From an archaeon (GTDB taxonomy: Archaea > Nanobdellota > Nanobdellia > Pacearchaeales > GW2011-AR1), in contig JABHWZ010000002.1 of the NCBI GenBank assembly GCA_018657525.1, forward strand, positions 84,590 to 148,589: DNA of 64,000 nucleotides, in the 5' to 3' direction. A model generated the notes under the pieces. It was not told where the DNA came from, did not search any database, and worked only from the letters and a program-made list of their open reading frames with translations. Of this stretch, positions 51,386 to 60,477 are shown piece after piece (position 1 is the first letter of the stretch; the number at the start of each line of letters is the position of its first letter). The position numbers and the translations under genes were made by a program.

Positions 51386-52006
51386 ATGAAAACATTGTTT
51401 ATTTCAGCAAAATCTAAAGCAAAGTTCAAACTTCCCAAATTTGAAAAACTTCCAAAAAATTTGGCAATTGCTTATTCAATTCAGTTTCAAAAACAAGCTC
51501 AAGAAATAAAAAAAATTCTAGAAAAAAATCACAAAATTACTTTTTTTAATCAAGTTCTCGGTTGCTCACTTCTTAATTTTTCCCAAAACACCGAAGGTGT
51601 TTTATTAATCGGACAAGGAAAATTCCATGCAACTGGTTTAGCAATTGAAACCAAATTGCCAGTTTATATTTTAGAGCAAAATAAAATTTCAAAAATTTCA
51701 AAAAAGGAAATTGAAATTTTATCCAAAAAACAAAAAGGAGCATATTTAAAATTCCTTCATGCCGAAAAGATCGGAATTTTAGTTTCAACAAAACCTGGTC
51801 AGCAAAACTTAAAAGCCGCAATTAAATTTCAAAATAAATTGCAAAGTTCTGGGGCAAAAAAAGATTCCTATTTGTTTATCGCTAACGACCTTGACATCGC
51901 TGAATTTGAAAACTTTCCGCAAATACGATCATGGGTAAATACTTCTTGTAGACGAATGGACATGGCGAGTTCTTCAATTATTAATCTAGATAAAATTCCA
52001 AAATAA
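51386..52006 (+). CDS. dph2: Dph2-like diphthamide synthesis protein, N-terminally truncated (domains 2-3 only)
   Basis: QVLGC, LLIGQGKFHATGLA, KIGILVSTKPGQ and NTSCRR align from memory with the QVLGC / LFIGSGIFHPLGLA / KFGVIVSIKKGQ / ACPR blocks of Pyrococcus Dph2. It is only 206 aa versus about 340. Confidence 0.6.
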   Translation: MKTLFISAKSKAKFKLPKFEKLPKNLAIAYSIQFQKQAQEIKKILEKNHKITFFNQVLGCSLLNFSQNTEGVLLIGQGKFHATGLAIETKLPVYILEQNKISKISKKEIEILSKKQKGAYLKFLHAEKIGILVSTKPGQQNLKAAIKFQNKLQSSGAKKDSYLFIANDLDIAEFENFPQIRSWVNTSCRRMDMASSSIINLDKIPK

Positions 52007-52043: not shown

Positions 52044-52427
52044 ATGAATGTTTTAATATTAGATAGAAGATTAGACCCAGCAAAGAATAGTAATGGCGAA
52101 ATAGAAAAACGTCAAGAATGGATTTCAGATGTATTTCACCGTTTGATTGAGGGAGAATATTCAATTAAGAGAACATATTCATTACATCAATTAGAAGAAG
52201 AACCACCTCATTCTTTAGAAAATTATCAAGCAATTATAGCTCATCCCTATGCAAGAGATTATCGTTCATTATTCAGGGTAGCTAAGAGTAATCCTCTTTT
52301 AAAAGTAATAATGTATGGGGATTATACGTTCGAAGATCAAATTGATGCAGAGGAATATTCCCCAAATATCACTCTATTATTGGAAGGAGTTTGGTCGGAT
52401 GAATTATTGGAGATATTAGAAAAATAG
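52044..52427 (+). CDS. hypothetical protein (127 aa)
   Basis: ORF with no motif. Confidence 0.5.
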   Translation: MNVLILDRRLDPAKNSNGEIEKRQEWISDVFHRLIEGEYSIKRTYSLHQLEEEPPHSLENYQAIIAHPYARDYRSLFRVAKSNPLLKVIMYGDYTFEDQIDAEEYSPNITLLLEGVWSDELLEILEK

Positions 52428-52469
52428 AATAATCAAAAACTTTTTAAATGTCTTTTTTCAAAAAATTAT

Positions 52470-52691
52470 ATGGCACACATCAAAGACGCGCGAACCCCAA
52501 AACATTTGGTTTGTTATATTATAGAAAGGGAACCTTACAAAATTCAAACTACTTATGGGAGTTTAAATTTGCCAGAGGATTTAGTACCGAGCGAGTTAAG
52601 AGAAAATCAAGATAAAGACAATTTCAGAGCGAAAGTTACTGCTGATCTAAAAGCAAAAGAAATCACATCACTTATTTTCGAAAGTTTTTGA
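52470..52691 (+). CDS. hypothetical protein (73 aa)
   Basis: Short ORF with its own TATA-like element. Confidence 0.4.
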   Translation: MAHIKDARTPKHLVCYIIEREPYKIQTTYGSLNLPEDLVPSELRENQDKDNFRAKVTADLKAKEITSLIFESF

Positions 52692-53212: not shown

Positions 53213-53863
53213 ATGGCCCAAAAAACTTTAGCATATAATGAACCCAGATTTGGAATGTTTGGAGTGAAAGAAGCAGCAGTTAGAGAGTTTATTCTTAATG
53301 GCAATAGCCAAGCAGAAAATTCTGAGCTAGATTTATTTGTGGGTGATGCTATGGATTCAAAAAAGGTAGATCCAGATGCTTTAGAAAGGGATTTTGACAG
53401 AGTCAATCAAAGATTTGGAAAAATATTAGTCGCAGTTCGAGATTTGAATCCTGATACGTTCAGAAAGGACAGATATAATTTCATTAATACTTTATATCAA
53501 AAACATCCAAATAATGAATTCAGATTAGTTTATGCTCAAGATAGTTTTGAGGTTACTCCACATCTTCCAAAATTACCCAATTTCGAAGCTTGCTTTGAAC
53601 AAGATTCACGCTCATGGGCAAAATGCTGGTTAGAGCAACAGGAAATAGTAAAGATACCTTCTGCATTATTACATTTTTCTTATCAACGTGGAGCAGATGA
53701 AACATCCAGACAGGGTGCAGCAAATGTTTGGCATGGACTCCTAGATTGCGTTCCATCTTTACCTGAAGTATTTATAAGATACTTTTCTCCAGGTTGGAAG
53801 GATGCAGATCACGAACACCCTCTGGCTAAAATGACCGTAGAGGATTGGATAGAATTCATGTAA
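53213..53863 (+). CDS. hypothetical protein (216 aa)
   Basis: ORF with no motif. Confidence 0.5.
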   Translation: MAQKTLAYNEPRFGMFGVKEAAVREFILNGNSQAENSELDLFVGDAMDSKKVDPDALERDFDRVNQRFGKILVAVRDLNPDTFRKDRYNFINTLYQKHPNNEFRLVYAQDSFEVTPHLPKLPNFEACFEQDSRSWAKCWLEQQEIVKIPSALLHFSYQRGADETSRQGAANVWHGLLDCVPSLPEVFIRYFSPGWKDADHEHPLAKMTVEDWIEFM

Positions 53864-53965
53864 TAATCCTTTCTGTATAATATAACCGCGCTCTTTTACT
53901 CATAACCTATATTCTAAAAAACAGAAATCTTTATAAACCATTAGTAACTCCGAAATTACAACAAG

Positions 53966-55918
53966 ATGAAAAACAAAATATTCAACTTAATGTTCGTGAG
54001 CGTTTTCGCAGTAATTCTTTTAGCTGGAATGGCTAGTGCAGCGGGGTTAAATTTTGTGGATGTTGAGTATTCTTCAACAGGAGACCACAATTCAGATTTA
54101 GAAGTTAAATTTAAATTACAAAATGAAATTTCAAATGGTTATGATATTTCAAATATTATTTTAGACTTTGATTTAGTTGCAGATGGAACATGGTCTCTGC
54201 CTTCTACAAGCGGATTAGATTTGGCTTCTGGAGAAGAGTCTTCATTATTAACTGCCACTCTTACTATACCAGAGAATAAAAATGCAGGAGACTATTCAGG
54301 AGAGTTAGGAGGAACATGTGAATATTCATCTTCAACAGGAAGTTCTAGAACAATTAATGATCATACTATTGATATCTCAATAAACCCCGCACCTTCTTTA
54401 ACAATCTCAAACGGAGAAGACGCATTAACAGAAGCAGACAAGGATACAACAATCACAATAACAAATGATGGAAACGTAGACTTAACAGGAATTGAATTAA
54501 TAGCATCAACAGAAGATTTCGATGTTACATTTAATTTAAATGATTTTGATTTAGCTGCTGGAGCAACAAAAGATGTAACAGTAACATTAAACGAAGACTA
54601 CGACGAAATATTTGGAGGCTCAGTTTCAATCACAGCTGAAGAATCAACAAACAACTTATCAGATACAGGCTCAGTTAATTATCAAGGAGACTTCTGCGAA
54701 GAAGTTGCAAATTTAGAAGACTTAGGAATAACAATCGAAGAAATAAATATTAAAGAAGGATTCGGAGAGGATGACGAATATGTTTACCCTTTCGACGAAG
54801 TAGAAGTTGAAATCACAATTGAACCAGGAAGATATGACATTCAAAAAATCGAAGTTGAGTGGGAATTATACACATTAGACGGAGAAAAAATCGCAGACGA
54901 TACTGAATCAAAATTCAACTTAGATGAAGATGACAGTGACAAAGAAATGATTATAAGATTCAAATTAGACGAAAGCTTAAATGATTTAGAAGGACAAGAC
55001 AAATTAAGACTTTTCGTAAGAGCAAAAGGTAAAGTCGACGACTCAGATTCAAGCAACGATAACGAAGATACTTGTGTTTCAGCTTACGAAGATATAGATG
55101 TTATCACAGACGACACTTTCATGGTTTTAGATAACATAGAATTTAGTGCAGATTCAGTTTCATGTGGAACAGACTTAACAATCACAGCAGAGTTATGGAA
55201 CATTGGAGATGAAAAACAAGAAGACATAACAGTTTTAATTTACAACTCAGAATTAGGAATAAGCAAAGAAGTTGAATTTGATGACGTAAGCGCATTTGAC
55301 AGCGAAGATTTAAACGCAGTAATCACAATACCTGAAAACGCAGTCGGAAAAATTTACGAATTGCAATTCAGAATATACGATGAAGACAATGACATTTACG
55401 AAACAAGCGAAGAGGAAGACACAGCAATATTCAAAGAACTTTTAACAGTTTCAGGAAGTTGCGCTTTATCTTCAACTCCAACTATTTCAGCAAGTTTAGA
55501 ATCAGATGCTCAAGCAGGAAAATCTTTGGTAGTTAAAACTACAATTGTAAATCCTGGAACAGAATTAGCAACTTACATTATCAAAGCAGCAGGTTACGCT
55601 GACTGGGCTGAATCAGCTGAGTTCGATTCTTCAACAGTTGTTTTAGAAGCCGGAGCAACTAAAGAATTAGAATTAACTTTCGAAGTAAAGAAAGACGCCG
55701 CAGGCGATGAAACTTTCGAGATCGAAGTTTATTCAGGAACAGATTTAGTATTAAAACAACCAGTTTCAATCACAATTACAAAAGCATCAGGATTTTTCGC
55801 TAGAATAACAGGCAACGTGGTCGGCGGAAACAGCTGGTACTTATGGGCAATCGGAGCACTAAATGTAGTCTTAGTTCTAGTAATAATCATAGTAGCTCTA
55901 AGAATCGCAAAGAGTTAA
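53966..55918 (+). CDS. very acidic secreted surface protein with repeated CARDB-like domains and a C-terminal TM anchor
   Basis: Signal peptide (MKNKIFNLMFVSVFAVILLAGMASA). Repeated x-I-T-N-x-G-type beta-sandwich signatures (ITITNDGNVDLTG, AELWNIGDEKQED, TIVNPGTELAT). C-terminal WYLWAIGALNVVLVLVIIIVALRIAKS. Confidence 0.7.
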   Translation: MKNKIFNLMFVSVFAVILLAGMASAAGLNFVDVEYSSTGDHNSDLEVKFKLQNEISNGYDISNIILDFDLVADGTWSLPSTSGLDLASGEESSLLTATLTIPENKNAGDYSGELGGTCEYSSSTGSSRTINDHTIDISINPAPSLTISNGEDALTEADKDTTITITNDGNVDLTGIELIASTEDFDVTFNLNDFDLAAGATKDVTVTLNEDYDEIFGGSVSITAEESTNNLSDTGSVNYQGDFCEEVANLEDLGITIEEINIKEGFGEDDEYVYPFDEVEVEITIEPGRYDIQKIEVEWELYTLDGEKIADDTESKFNLDEDDSDKEMIIRFKLDESLNDLEGQDKLRLFVRAKGKVDDSDSSNDNEDTCVSAYEDIDVITDDTFMVLDNIEFSADSVSCGTDLTITAELWNIGDEKQEDITVLIYNSELGISKEVEFDDVSAFDSEDLNAVITIPENAVGKIYELQFRIYDEDNDIYETSEEEDTAIFKELLTVSGSCALSSTPTISASLESDAQAGKSLVVKTTIVNPGTELATYIIKAAGYADWAESAEFDSSTVVLEAGATKELELTFEVKKDAAGDETFEIEVYSGTDLVLKQPVSITITKASGFFARITGNVVGGNSWYLWAIGALNVVLVLVIIIVALRIAKS

Positions 55919-55919
55919 A

Positions 55920-56285
55920 ATGGCATTTTTTCTACCTAAATGTATTCCTGATTATCGATTTTCAGATAAGTGGGTTCAATATTTACCTTTAATTGGAATT
56001 CCTGCAGAACTAAGGGGAAGGAGGAAAAAGAGAAATAGAATTGCAACTGATGTACAATCAGTTTCAGGAATTGCTGGGATGTTTGGAGCAGTATTGCTAT
56101 TGACTTCTTCTTTAAAAATGCCACAGACAAATCAACAATACAATCAAGCAATCACAGAAGGTTTACCTCCTGCAACTTATGAGGAAGTTCAATCTATCTC
56201 TCGAGAAAGATGGGTAAGAAAACTTGACGAATCAGATTATACTGCAGATGAAATTAGAGAATTCGTTAAAGGAGAAAGAGATTAA
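55920..56285 (+). CDS. small single-TM protein, paralog 1 of a tandem triplet (121 aa)
   Basis: Shares the C-terminal block NQQYNQ..EGLPPATYEEVQSISRERWVRKL.ESDYTADEIRE with the next two genes. It starts 1 nt after the surface-protein gene. Confidence 0.65.
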   Translation: MAFFLPKCIPDYRFSDKWVQYLPLIGIPAELRGRRKKRNRIATDVQSVSGIAGMFGAVLLLTSSLKMPQTNQQYNQAITEGLPPATYEEVQSISRERWVRKLDESDYTADEIREFVKGERD

Positions 56286-56286
56286 A

Positions 56287-56661
56287 ATGAAATCACTCCA
56301 TAATTTTATAACAAAAAAATTTCCAGATGAATGGGCACAATTGGTCCCAATTTATGGGATTCCAGCAGCGACTAGGGTTGGTGATTCATTGACTGTGAAA
56401 AGTGTTCTTACCTCAGTAATCCAATTGGCTTCAGTAGTTACAGGGGTTATTGGTTTAACTTTAACTAGTTTTGCGATTAATGATATGCCTAAGACAAATC
56501 AACAATACAATCAACTCCTCCAAGAAGGTTTACCTCCCGCTCCTTACGAACAAGTCCAATCTATCTCTCGAGAAAGATGGGTAAGAAAACTTAATGAATC
56601 AGATTATACAACTGAAGAAATTAGAGAACTAGTTAGAGGCAAATATGGAGAAAAGGAATAA
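56287..56661 (+). CDS. small single-TM protein, paralog 2 (124 aa)
   Basis: ATG at 56287, 1 nt after the paralog 1 stop. The N-terminal FPDEWAQLVPIYGIPAA block is shared with paralog 3. Confidence 0.65.
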   Translation: MKSLHNFITKKFPDEWAQLVPIYGIPAATRVGDSLTVKSVLTSVIQLASVVTGVIGLTLTSFAINDMPKTNQQYNQLLQEGLPPAPYEQVQSISRERWVRKLNESDYTTEEIRELVRGKYGEKE

Positions 56662-56662
56662 A

Positions 56663-57028
56663 ATGAAATTATACAATTTTCTAACAAAAAAAGTTCCAGA
56701 TGAATGGGCACAATTGGTCCCAATTTATGGGATTCCAGCAGCGAATAAGGTTGGTAGTGCATTGACTGTGAAAAGTGTTCTTGCCCCAGTAATCCAAATT
56801 TGTTCAGTAGTTACAGGGGTTATTGGTTTAAGTTTAATGTTAACTGGTTTTGTGCTTAATGATAGACCTAAAGATAATCAAAGATATAATCAACTTTTGA
56901 ATGAAGGTTTACCTCCTGCAACTTATGAAGAAGTTCAATCTATCTCTCGAGAAAGATGGTTAAAAAAACTTAACGAATCAGATTATTCCGCAGATGAAAT
57001 TAGAGAACTAGTTAGAGAAAGAGATTAA
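56663..57028 (+). CDS. small single-TM protein, paralog 3 (121 aa)
   Basis: ATG at 56663, 1 nt after the paralog 2 stop. Confidence 0.65.
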   Translation: MKLYNFLTKKVPDEWAQLVPIYGIPAANKVGSALTVKSVLAPVIQICSVVTGVIGLSLMLTGFVLNDRPKDNQRYNQLLNEGLPPATYEEVQSISRERWLKKLNESDYSADEIRELVRERD

Positions 57029-57029
57029 A

Positions 57030-57356
57030 ATGACATTATATAAATCTTTAAAAAACACAGGAAGAGCATTGGCCTTAAGTGGATTAATTACTTTGGCTGG
57101 TTGCAGTAAACCAGAAACTCCTGAAGAAGAACCAGACAGATTAACTCGAACTTTGGAAGTTGGAAAGAAAACTTTTAAAGGAGTAAGTTATAATGGGCTG
57201 ACACGAGATAATACCTTTTCAGTGAGTGAGAACACACATAATACTACTATCTTTCTTCCAAGAGATACAAATAATTTTCAATACAGGCACCAAAAATTTA
57301 AAGTTTTAAAATTAACCCCCAAATCAATAACTTTAAGATTAATAGAACCTTACTAA
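57030..57356 (+). CDS. putative lipoprotein (108 aa)
   Basis: Signal sequence ending in the lipobox-like LAGC; 1-nt gap after paralog 3. Confidence 0.5.
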   Translation: MTLYKSLKNTGRALALSGLITLAGCSKPETPEEEPDRLTRTLEVGKKTFKGVSYNGLTRDNTFSVSENTHNTTIFLPRDTNNFQYRHQKFKVLKLTPKSITLRLIEPY

Positions 57357-57400
57357 CCAAACTTCCCAAATTATTTAAACCTTTCAAAGTTTATTTTTCT

Positions 57401-57916
57401 ATGAAAAAACAAATCACAAATATTTTCATTAGATATTTAATTTTACTTTTAGTTGCAATCCCAAACCTTTATTTATTTTATAAAATTTTCACCCCTCTAA
57501 CTCTTTATTCAGTTTATTTTATCTTAGACATTTTCTTTGAACCCGGTTTAATTTTAAATATGATTTACCTCCCTTTTCTTAAACTTCCTGTCGTTTTAAT
57601 TCCTGCTTGCATAGCTGGCTCAGCCTACTATCTTTTATTAATCCTAAATCTTTCAATTTCAAATATAAAAATAAAAAAAAGAATCACCATGATTCTTTAC
57701 GCATTTGCCGCACTTTTAATTTTCAATATTTTAAGAATTTTCTTTTTAATTCTCCTAGCAGATTCTTCAATGTTCGAAATAACTCATAAGTTTTTTTGGT
57801 ATTTTCTTAGCACAATTTTCGTAGTTTTAATTTGGTTCTCTGAAGTTAAACTTTTTAAAATAAAACAAATCCCATTTTACTCAGATTTTAAATTTTTATA
57901 TAAACAAACAAAATGA
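57401..57916 (+). CDS. exosortase/archaeosortase-family membrane protein (short form)
   Basis: Polytopic, with candidate catalytic residues in the family-typical order: Cys in IPACIAGS, Arg in FNILRIFF, His in EITHKFFW. Confidence 0.5.
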   Translation: MKKQITNIFIRYLILLLVAIPNLYLFYKIFTPLTLYSVYFILDIFFEPGLILNMIYLPFLKLPVVLIPACIAGSAYYLLLILNLSISNIKIKKRITMILYAFAALLIFNILRIFFLILLADSSMFEITHKFFWYFLSTIFVVLIWFSEVKLFKIKQIPFYSDFKFLYKQTK

Positions 57917-58539
57917 TCTTTGATTTATTTTATAGCTTCATTGCAACAATTGTTTCCTTAGTGCAAAGCTCAGGTTATCTAGGAATATTTTTAGGAATGA
58001 CAATTGAAAGTTCTTTTATTCCCTTCCCGAGCGAGGTTATATTAATTCCGGCCGGAGCCTTAAGTGCAAGTGGACAAATGTCTTTCAGTTTAGTTTTGCT
58101 AGCAGGAATCTTCGGAAGTTTACTTGGAGCTCTCATTAATTATTTTTTAGCACTTTATCTTGGTAGAAATACAATTGATTTTTTAATTTCAAAATACGGA
58201 AAGTTAATGCTTTTAGATAATAAAAAATTAAAAAAAACAGATACTTTCTTCAACAAGCATGGAGATATAACAACTTTTACTGGAAGACTCATCCCTGTGA
58301 TTCGTCAGTTAATCTCACTTCCCGCAGGTTTCTCTAAAATGAATCTCACAAAATTCATATTCTTTACCTCACTCGGCGCAGGAATATGGTCGTTTATTTT
58401 AGTTTACATTGGATATTTATTTGGAAATAATTTAGAATGGTTACATGCAAACAAAAATTTATTAACTATCTCAATGATTTTATTATCCGGAATAATTATA
58501 ATTGGATATTTAGTTTACAAAAGAAAAATTAAATTATGA
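57913..58539 (+). CDS. DedA/VTT-domain (SNARE-associated) membrane protein
   Basis: GYLGIFLGMTIESSFIPFPSEVILIPAGAL and ...TGRLIPVIRQLISLPAG are DedA signatures. Confidence 0.85.
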   Translation: MIFDLFYSFIATIVSLVQSSGYLGIFLGMTIESSFIPFPSEVILIPAGALSASGQMSFSLVLLAGIFGSLLGALINYFLALYLGRNTIDFLISKYGKLMLLDNKKLKKTDTFFNKHGDITTFTGRLIPVIRQLISLPAGFSKMNLTKFIFFTSLGAGIWSFILVYIGYLFGNNLEWLHANKNLLTISMILLSGIIIIGYLVYKRKIKL

Positions 58540-58554
58540 TTTTAGAATTTTTAA

Positions 58555-59283
58555 TTAAATTATAGAAAGAGCTTCAGTAATAAATTTTTCAGTTACTTCT
58601 AAAATTTCACAATCACTTACATGAAATGTGTAACAACTAATGCCATTTTGTTCTATCTTACTTTCTTCCCCTTCAACAATATTTATGAAAGTGTACCGAT
58701 TTTCCTCGTCGCAAATTGCTTCTGGATCTTCCATAATTGTTGCTCCTAGATATGTAAAAAATTCATTGAACACATGATTTGCAAGAACTCCCTTCCCTTC
58801 ACATTGAAAATCTCCAGTGCTATTCAAAACAATCGCTTTATCGACGACTAACTCTCCACTAAATGGAATATCAATTTCATTTTTCCGTGGATCATTTCTT
58901 AAATAAAGATTATAATTCACAAGTTTTCCTTGATAAGATATTGGGAAACTTGTATGATAAAACTTAATCCCTTTTTCATCAAGAATTTCAAAATCTCTTT
59001 CTTGGTATTCAAAATGTTTAATCGCTTGCATCGAAAAATAAGTAATTAAAAAAATACCAATTATCCCCCCAATAATTATTAAAACCCCCCAAAGAATTTT
59101 ATTCTCTTTTTGAATTTGCCCTTTATTTACCTCTGGAATTTCCTGTTCACCACAAGCTTTTTCTAATTTTTCTTTTCCGCCTTTTTTAACCTCAAAAGTT
59201 TCACAAACCTTTGCCCCAGAATTCAGATTTTTGGGGTACACCGAGCGGTGAGTTTTTTCTTCACTTTCTTTCTTTTTTACCAT
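58555..59283 (-). CDS. hypothetical membrane-anchored extracytoplasmic protein (242 aa)
   Basis: A basic N-terminus, one TM helix (ILWGVLIIIGGIIGIFLITYF), then a Cys-containing globular domain. Confidence 0.5.
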   Translation of the reverse strand: MVKKKESEEKTHRSVYPKNLNSGAKVCETFEVKKGGKEKLEKACGEQEIPEVNKGQIQKENKILWGVLIIIGGIIGIFLITYFSMQAIKHFEYQERDFEILDEKGIKFYHTSFPISYQGKLVNYNLYLRNDPRKNEIDIPFSGELVVDKAIVLNSTGDFQCEGKGVLANHVFNEFFTYLGATIMEDPEAICDEENRYTFINIVEGEESKIEQNGISCYTFHVSDCEILEVTEKFITEALSII

Positions 59284-59370: not shown

Positions 59371-59946
59371 TTATTTAATTCCAATTATTTTCAATAAAAA
59401 TTCATCAACCAGCTTTACTAAATCTGAACTATTCCCCTCAATAAACACACAATTTTCTTCTTGCTTAATTGAATTCTCTTCTGTTTCAGAAATTATAATA
59501 AAATTATTCGAACAATTTTTTATGGGCAAATCTTCTTCACATTCTGTTCCTTCCAGACAAGCAAGTTGAATTCTTTGGGCCACATTATTCATATTAATAT
59601 AAACTTCTGAAAGAGCATCATTTTCTGAAGATGAAATGTATAAGGGTTTATTTTCATAGACTCCAATGGAATTCAACAATGAATTCTCTAGACCAGATAT
59701 TTCATTAGGATTTGTCTTAAAGCCAAATTGTCTACCTTCTTTCTCAACAATCCATAAACCATTATTTAAAATAAATTCATGTCCCCCATAATTTATTTGT
59801 GTTTGAATAGAAGAATCTTCCCCCTTATCATAAAAACTATATCCAATCGTCCCAAGAAACATTATTGAAATAAGCACGACCCCAATAATCAAATTGTTCC
59901 GCTCTTGTTTTTTCGCCCGGTTCTCTTTACTAATTAATTTTCTCAT
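59371..59946 (-). CDS. hypothetical membrane-anchored extracytoplasmic protein (191 aa)
   Basis: An N-terminal signal anchor (LIIGVVLISIMFLGTIGY) followed by a soluble domain. Confidence 0.5.
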   Translation of the reverse strand: MRKLISKENRAKKQERNNLIIGVVLISIMFLGTIGYSFYDKGEDSSIQTQINYGGHEFILNNGLWIVEKEGRQFGFKTNPNEISGLENSLLNSIGVYENKPLYISSSENDALSEVYINMNNVAQRIQLACLEGTECEEDLPIKNCSNNFIIISETEENSIKQEENCVFIEGNSSDLVKLVDEFLLKIIGIK

Positions 59947-59980: not shown

Positions 59981-60223
59981 TTATTGTTGTTTTTTGTGGT
60001 ACAATCCCAAGATATAGATTAAATCTTTATTAATAATTAAATAAGAAAGTCTAAATGGTTTAATGTAAAGTTCTCTTGTCCCTTTTCTAACATTTCTCAT
60101 TGGTTTTCCAACTTCAGGATTATCTGATATTTTTTTAATTTGCTTTTGAATTTTTGTTCTAATAAAATTGTCTAACTTAGAAAAAATTTCAACAAATTTT
60201 TTATCAAAACGTATTTCTACCAT
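59981..60223 (-). CDS. RelE/ParE-family toxin
   Basis: 80 aa. ...ISDNPEVGKPMRNVRKGTRELYIKPFRLSYLI...IYILGLYHK is the RelE/ParE pattern. It overlaps the upstream antitoxin by 7 nt. Confidence 0.7.
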   Translation of the reverse strand: MVEIRFDKKFVEIFSKLDNFIRTKIQKQIKKISDNPEVGKPMRNVRKGTRELYIKPFRLSYLIINKDLIYILGLYHKKQQ

Positions 60224-60477
60224 TTTAACATTTCATCAAGATTTTCAGAATCAATACTAACAAACTCCCCAGTTTCAATTCTCTTGTGTGCTTCTTCAGT
60301 TCTTTTTGCAAATTCCAAATCTTCCTCGATATTATCTGCAAAATCCTCTACTTTTTTAAGAATTATCTGCTTATCATTTCTTATCACAATTAATTTGTCT
60401 CCTTCATTAAAATCTTTTCTAAGTGATTGAGGGATAACAACCTGCCCCCTTGAACTTACTTTTGTAATTTCTATCAT
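60217..60477 (-). CDS. AbrB/SpoVT (MazE-like) family antitoxin
   Basis: ITKVSSRGQVVIPQSLRKDF is the swapped-hairpin AbrB motif. Confidence 0.75.
   Translation of the reverse strand: MIEITKVSSRGQVVIPQSLRKDFNEGDKLIVIRNDKQIILKKVEDFADNIEEDLEFAKRTEEAHKRIETGEFVSIDSENLDEMLKW

Follow-up and report, generated by a model that had tools for sequence, protein, structure and literature searches.

Does the small genome of an archaeon of the order Pacearchaeales encode, side by side, an archaeosortase and the surface protein on which it acts? The question is raised by a locus in the window, by which we mean the whole 64,000-nucleotide (nt) stretch of contig JABHWZ010000002.1 that was analysed. An earlier note, made from the letters of the DNA, had described here a surface-protein operon ending next to an archaeosortase-like gene. 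Our analysis indicates that the locus is very likely a pacearchaeosortase/PACE-CTERM system, consisting of one dedicated pair of enzyme and substrate, and that the four small genes lying between the two are orphan inserts. The six open reading frames (ORFs) were checked against the ORF list and by fresh translation and lie where the earlier note had placed them:

53966-55918 (+), PACE-CTERM protein gene, 650 amino acids (aa), predicted substrate
55920-56285 (+), gene of a single-transmembrane (TM) protein, copy A, species-restricted, 121 aa
56287-56661 (+), single-TM protein gene, copy B, species-restricted, 124 aa
56663-57028 (+), single-TM protein gene, copy C, species-restricted, 121 aa
57030-57356 (+), gene of a lipobox (LAGC) protein, 108 aa
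57401-57916 (+), pacearchaeosortase gene, 171 aa, polytopic protein

The source genome, 84 % complete, comprises 0.83 Mb on 14 contigs with about 33 % guanine plus cytosine and derives from marine metagenomes, as would be expected of a DPANN archaeon of the Pacearchaeota group. Contigs from four marine metagenome runs (2012, 2016, 2017) cover the stretch with 100 % identity, bridging the junction between the substrate gene and copy A as well as the succession from copy C through the lipobox gene and the sortase gene to the DedA-family gene that follows, and therefore the gene arrangement is real and not an assembly artefact.

The sortase

The short polytopic protein had been called archaeosortase-like on the basis of the order of its Cys, Arg and His residues, and both the family models and the conservation of these residues bear this out. 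The protein scores 199.7 bits against the NCBIfam model NF033505, 'pacearchaeosortase' (cut-off 80), with residues 6-170 aligned to profile positions 2-166 of 167, and 28.6 bits against the exosortase/archaeosortase signature TIGR04178 (cut-off 23) over residues 69-146, so that the check by archaeosortase models proposed in the earlier note was passed twice. By its sequence it is a member of the exosortase/archaeosortase family, of the pacearchaeosortase type. Among the other named archaeosortase types the best matches were far below their cut-offs (ArtD, E = 0.9), and no ArtA model was among the matches listed. A six-frame search of the genome recovered the sortase at 199 bits on NF033505, and the genome contains exactly one sortase and one substrate. 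Pfam gave nothing above threshold for either protein.

The expected residues are Cys70 in IPACIAGS, Arg112 in NILRIF and His129 in THKFFW. In an alignment of 21 sortases Cys70, Arg94, Asn109, Arg112, His129 and Trp133 are invariant, and C70, R94, R112 and H129 are likewise invariant in a 19-sequence alignment. The AlphaFold model, with a predicted local distance difference test (pLDDT) score of 90.3, contains five long helices, and residues 49-65 form a small beta-hairpin. Since neither a profile search of PDB sequences with the sortase, which found no match, nor Foldseek of the model against the PDB, which returned nothing below E = 1, revealed a counterpart, the PDB library appears to hold no solved relative of this enzyme.

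The predicted substrate and its C-terminal signal

The NCBIfam model NF033506, 'PACE-CTERM-PROT, putative S-layer protein', gives 453.6 bits (cut-off 110) with the 650-aa protein, residues 4-649 being aligned to profile positions 2-626 of 627. The protein had been predicted to be an archaeosortase substrate with a sorting signal that was not one of the recognised types; its membership of the substrate family supports the first part of this claim, and the second has to be revised, as the signal already has a name, PACE-CTERM. The protein is extremely acidic, as the earlier note had stated, with an isoelectric point of 4.05 and 20.6 % Asp plus Glu. The signal peptide comprises residues 1-25 (...GMASA/AG), and hydropathy is highest over residues 5-23 and 626-644. 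In the AlphaFold2 model (mean pLDDT 82) about five beta-sandwich domains are followed by a disordered linker (611-623), a TM helix (624-649) and a basic tail ending in RIAKS. The CARDB repeats proposed for this protein correspond to a sub-threshold match: the CARDB family (PF07705) scored 20.2 bits (E = 6.9e-4), below the Pfam cut-off of 22.7. The modelled fold is of the beta-sandwich type. Foldseek of the model found only generic strings of Ig-like or beta-sandwich domains with TM-scores of 0.15-0.24, including alpha-2-macroglobulin, complement proteins and ciliary central-apparatus proteins; these matches carry no information on S-layer identity.

The sorting signal itself was delimited from an alignment of 31 orthologue tails:

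55781-55915 (+), C-terminal sorting signal, aa 606-650 of the PACE-CTERM protein, KASGFFARITGNVVGGNSWYLWAIGALNVVLVLVIIIVALRIAKS

Across these orthologues the last beta-strand, a linker of 12-20 residues and the basic end are kept, and the helix begins with a Trp that is followed shortly afterwards by an (I/V)(N/D) pair. The linker reads ...ITG...GDNWYLW in this family and is an amphipathic SWxDQLxFELKR elsewhere; the tail of the 650-aa protein has no PGF motif. Cys400 and Cys499 of the substrate are invariant and Cys244 and Cys370 nearly so in the same orthologues, and these conserved cysteines probably form extracellular disulfide bonds.

A search of the proteome for further carriers of the signal, suggested in the earlier note, found none. 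A hidden Markov model (HMM) built from 14 orthologue tails and run against the six-frame ORFs of the genome matched only the 650-aa protein (E = 1.2e-19), the next hit being at E = 0.24, which argues for a single enzyme dedicated to a single substrate. A secreted 416-aa paralogue of the C-terminal half of the substrate, with shared beta-sandwich domains, is encoded on contig C10 (37113-38360, -). It has its own C-terminal TM helix and a tail ending ...LLGKKPSQ, without the Trp/Asn motif, and proteins of about 440 aa that resemble it match NF033506 below the cut-off in many genomes of the order. It is possible that this paralogue and its relatives are additional substrates, and the former may be regarded as an uncertain second substrate in this genome.

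Distribution in the order and linkage of the two genes

Co-occurrence of the two families was surveyed in 101 genomes of the same order and 14 control genomes, with NCBIfam cut-offs applied. The substrate was above its cut-off in 97 of the 101 genomes and the sortase in 93, and none of the 14 control genomes had either protein above cut-off. The proteins that share the tail signal are orthologues, one per genome, and thus the family of signal carriers anticipated in the earlier note does exist, across genomes, as orthologues of a single protein. Linkage depends on the family considered: in the family of the source genome (f1) the substrate gene lies directly upstream of the sortase gene or within about 1 kilobase (kb), and in family f4, for example in genomes G044 and G011, the two genes are far apart and unlinked. 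These tiny genomes mostly lack a PssA-type enzyme and nearly all of them keep the pair, which suggests that the pair is central to the Pacearchaeota envelope.

Relation to known sorting systems

The system is already catalogued in NCBIfam, and the NCBI pipeline would name both proteins. The two match NF033505 and NF033506, respectively, over their full length and far above the cut-offs, their pairing and taxonomic range are those of the catalogued families, and nothing essential differs from the catalogued system apart from the four species-specific genes found here between substrate and enzyme. What is added to the catalogue entry is the S_layer_C-type protein encoded nearby and the observation that the PssA/PssD pathway is mostly missing in the order, both described below. 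The three-part tail and the Cys/Arg/His order were recognisable from the raw sequence alone.

The system can also be compared with ArtA and the PGF-CTERM proteins of Haloferax volcanii. ArtA likewise spans the membrane several times, belongs to the exosortase/archaeosortase family and has conserved Cys and Arg residues, of which Cys173, Arg214 and Arg253 are essential (PMC9263693). The PGF-CTERM S-layer glycoprotein is also a major surface protein whose C-terminal signal has three parts, namely a motif, a TM helix and a basic tail (PMC5744192; PMC9263693). In contrast to ArtA, the pacearchaeosortase is much shorter, with 171 aa and about five helices, and has one substrate instead of many; in contrast to PGF-CTERM, the signal has no PGF motif and places a Trp and the (I/V)(N/D) pair inside the helix.

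Bacterial exosortase subfamilies described by Haft in NCBIfam/TIGRFAM also include dedicated systems of one enzyme and one substrate with other motifs. They resemble the present system in having a minimal sortase encoded beside a single target, and differ from it in their bacterial origin and in the motifs. In the Sulfolobales, SlaA is an anchorless lattice protein and SlaB a partner with a C-terminal TM anchor, the two genes lying close together, and SlaB is not known to be processed by a sortase. The likeness to the proteins discussed in the next section would lie in the pairing of an anchorless with an anchored protein and is an analogy only.

Probable envelope genes next to the pair

Downstream of the sortase gene the window contains further genes of what looks like the same envelope locus:

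57913-58539 (+), DedA/VTT-family membrane protein gene, UptA-like, with NF052604 and Pfam VTT_dom matches
58555-59283 and 59371-59946 (-), genes of two conserved proteins with N-terminal anchors, 242 and 191 aa
60617-63061 (-), S_layer_C-type secreted protein without C-terminal anchor, 814 aa, PF05124

The secreted 814-aa protein scores 29.1 bits against the Pfam family S_layer_C (PF05124), for which the cut-off is 23.9. Proteins of this type are found in 89 of the 101 genomes of the order, and their genes lie within a few kb of the sortase gene in many of the genomes compared (2.7 kb away here). The 814-aa protein is a further S-layer candidate in the locus and may even be the principal one. 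The most probable of the alternative explanations builds on this: the PACE-CTERM protein would not be the lattice itself, and would instead be the membrane-anchored stalk of the anchorless S_layer_C-type protein. The S_layer_C match of the 814-aa protein, its lack of a C-terminal anchor, its occurrence in most genomes of the order and its nearness to the sortase where checked agree with such a division of roles, whereas the Foldseek search with the PACE-CTERM protein gave only generic Ig-like strings and NCBIfam labels that same protein a putative S-layer protein. We consider the stalk a speculative possibility, with the odds against it.

The DedA-family protein scores 137.7 bits against NF052604 (UptA, undecaprenyl-phosphate transporter), below the cut-off of 250, and 85.9 bits against Pfam VTT_dom, and it may be connected with surface glycosylation, in which a polyprenyl-phosphate carrier would have to be recycled. 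Its gene overlaps the sortase gene by 4 nt, an overlap that recurs at loci L023, L026, L028, L030 and L065, and the linkage of sortase and DedA is conserved in several genera. The 242- and 191-aa anchored proteins have homologues at the same position in G166, a genome of the same genus, and in genome G035. Taken together, the locus looks like a conserved envelope island.

Proposed processing and points against it

Family membership, the conserved residues, co-occurrence, linkage and signal architecture can be regarded as established, while cleavage and the acceptor are what we infer, and they are described here as a proposal. By analogy with ArtA (PMC5744192; PMC9263693), the substrate would be exported through its signal peptide by the Sec pathway, and its C-terminal TM helix and basic tail would at first hold it in the membrane. 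The sortase would then recognise the tail, and Cys70 would attack near the boundary of linker and helix, in or beside the flexible linker; the helix and basic tail would be released and the new C-terminus handed to an acceptor.

Several observations weigh against a dedicated sorting system of this kind, or at least against its proposed chemistry. Genome G035, which is 95 % complete, keeps a 649-aa PACE-CTERM protein with its TM tail and has no sortase, and since the substrate is retained there without the enzyme, processing may be dispensable in some genomes. The loss is a clean one, as the DedA gene follows the substrate gene after 43 nt (locus L062, G035:C1:377900-384000). The tail motif differs considerably among families of the order. 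The maturation of ArtA substrates depends on PssA and PssD (PMC9263693), and the source genome has no match to the PssA or PssD families (CDP-alcohol phosphatidyltransferase and phosphatidylserine decarboxylase, respectively). The same holds for most of the order: any CDP-alcohol phosphatidyltransferase, that is, a PssA-type enzyme, was found in 13 of 60 high-quality genomes, as compared with a sortase in 54 of 56. The missing pathway is a further difference from ArtA, and because PssA-type enzymes are mostly absent, a self-made lipid acceptor of the ArtA kind is unlikely; the acceptor may be a host-derived lipid, water or a protein. Lastly, our literature search found no paper naming pacearchaeosortase or PACE-CTERM, and the only paper found that mentions both archaeosortase and Pacearchaeota, a review, states that nothing is known on S-layers in these phyla.

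A more elaborate proposal would be that the sortase joins its sole substrate to host lipids or to a non-lipid acceptor, and that the product is the membrane-proximal partner of the S_layer_C-type protein in a two-component DPANN envelope; we regard this combination as rather doubtful.

Some of the same observations would also fit a simpler explanation, in which the C-terminal helix is a permanent anchor and the adjacent sortase is inactive or acts on something else. The intact substrate of G035, with its TM tail, DedA directly after it and no sortase, is what a permanent anchor would predict, and the absence of the Haloferax-type lipid-acceptor pathway points in the same direction. Against this explanation, enzyme and substrate occur together almost throughout the order and their genes are neighbours in this family, the Cys, Arg and His of the sortase are invariant, the tail is conserved beyond its hydrophobicity in the Trp and the (I/V)(N/D) pair, and the NCBIfam curators paired both families by name. 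A permanent anchor is for these reasons improbable, and a pacearchaeosortase acting on its PACE-CTERM partner remains the reading that we prefer.

Transcription units and inserted small genes

The description of the locus as an operon ending next to the archaeosortase-like gene holds for the adjacency of the genes, as 44 nt separate the lipobox gene from the sortase gene, and fails for transcription, since the sortase gene has a conserved promoter of its own. Two promoter elements were found:

53930-53937 (+), substrate TATA box TTTATAAA; after it comes a leader, also conserved and some 28 nt long, CCATnnGTAACTCC...ATTACA
57370-57379 (+), sortase TATA-like box ATTATTTAAA, preceding the ATG by about 25 nt

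The substrate TATA box and leader align upstream of the orthologues in 13 relatives and are conserved across genera, and most of 19 relatives have a (T)ATTTAAA box about as far in front of the sortase gene. The conserved TATA box of the sortase therefore indicates two transcription units. The inserts lie between the substrate stop codon and the sortase promoter and are joined by TAAAATG, so these orphan genes are probably carried on the substrate transcript and would owe their transcription to the strong promoter of the substrate gene. The ten runs listed for the stretch are all marked as probable DNA, and the operon structure is deduced from promoters alone.

The three paralogous single-TM proteins, the LAGC lipobox protein and the 1-nt gaps described in the earlier note are all present: each of the four tight junctions after the substrate gene reads TAA-A-ATG. 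The 1-nt spacing, to which the earlier note drew attention, is not special to this operon, because TAAAATG is the standard junction of this genome: of the 77 one-nucleotide junctions between ORFs of at least 60 aa, 67 have this sequence. Copy B is 76 % and copy A 54 % identical to copy C, with one hydrophobic segment each, and a distant fourth paralogue lies on contig C6 in an unrelated context. In the C-terminal halves of the paralogues the nonsynonymous substitution rate (dN) is well below the synonymous rate (dS), with dN/dS of about 0.25-0.55, and for this reason the single-TM genes look real. The database protein P0003, from a strain variant, is a chimera of copies A and C, which suggests that strains differ in the number of copies in the array.

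The earlier note had placed the small genes in one operon with the surface protein; the comparison with other genomes speaks against a part for them in the sorting system. In G166 a 634-aa substrate is followed by 30 nt, the sortase gene and the DedA gene, with flanking genes that match the window, and both the single-TM genes and the lipobox gene are absent between substrate and sortase. Other relatives have nothing or unrelated small ORFs in this gap, among them a different lipobox protein at locus L025. The lipobox protein has no match in the 150 other genomes of the family, the same genus included. A word-based search of 5.8 billion proteins found four entries of the single-TM family, all from this species, and when 1.84 billion representative proteins were searched exhaustively with a profile, the family matched only itself; a wider single-TM family was thereby ruled out. 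As judged from these searches, the TM paralogues, three in number, and the lipobox gene are orphan inserts specific to this species and not components of the system. The proposal that they act as accessory sorting subunits, such as adaptors or an anchor complex, would find support in their translational coupling to the substrate gene, in the purifying selection on the paralogue C-terminal domains and in the unrelated small genes (the L025 lipobox protein included) that some relatives carry at this place, but it is very improbable given that neither G166 nor any other genome searched has them, that in many relatives no gene separates substrate and sortase, and that the fourth paralogue stands in an unrelated context. 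In metagenome assembly graphs the paralogue array splits, between positions 56196 and 56744, into short unitigs of raised depth.

The conserved envelope locus is a repeated insertion target. In comparison with G166, the window also has extra ORFs (127, 73 and 216 aa; 52044-52691 and 53213-53863, +) between the Dph2 homologue, a 128-aa membrane protein gene and the substrate gene, and a toxin-antitoxin-like pair (59981-60477, -) between the gene of the 191-aa protein and the S_layer_C-type gene. The Dph2 homologue upstream (51386-52006, +) is short, with 206 aa that match only positions 75-275 of the 308-position profile, and its orthologues in relatives are likewise short, at 196-217 aa.

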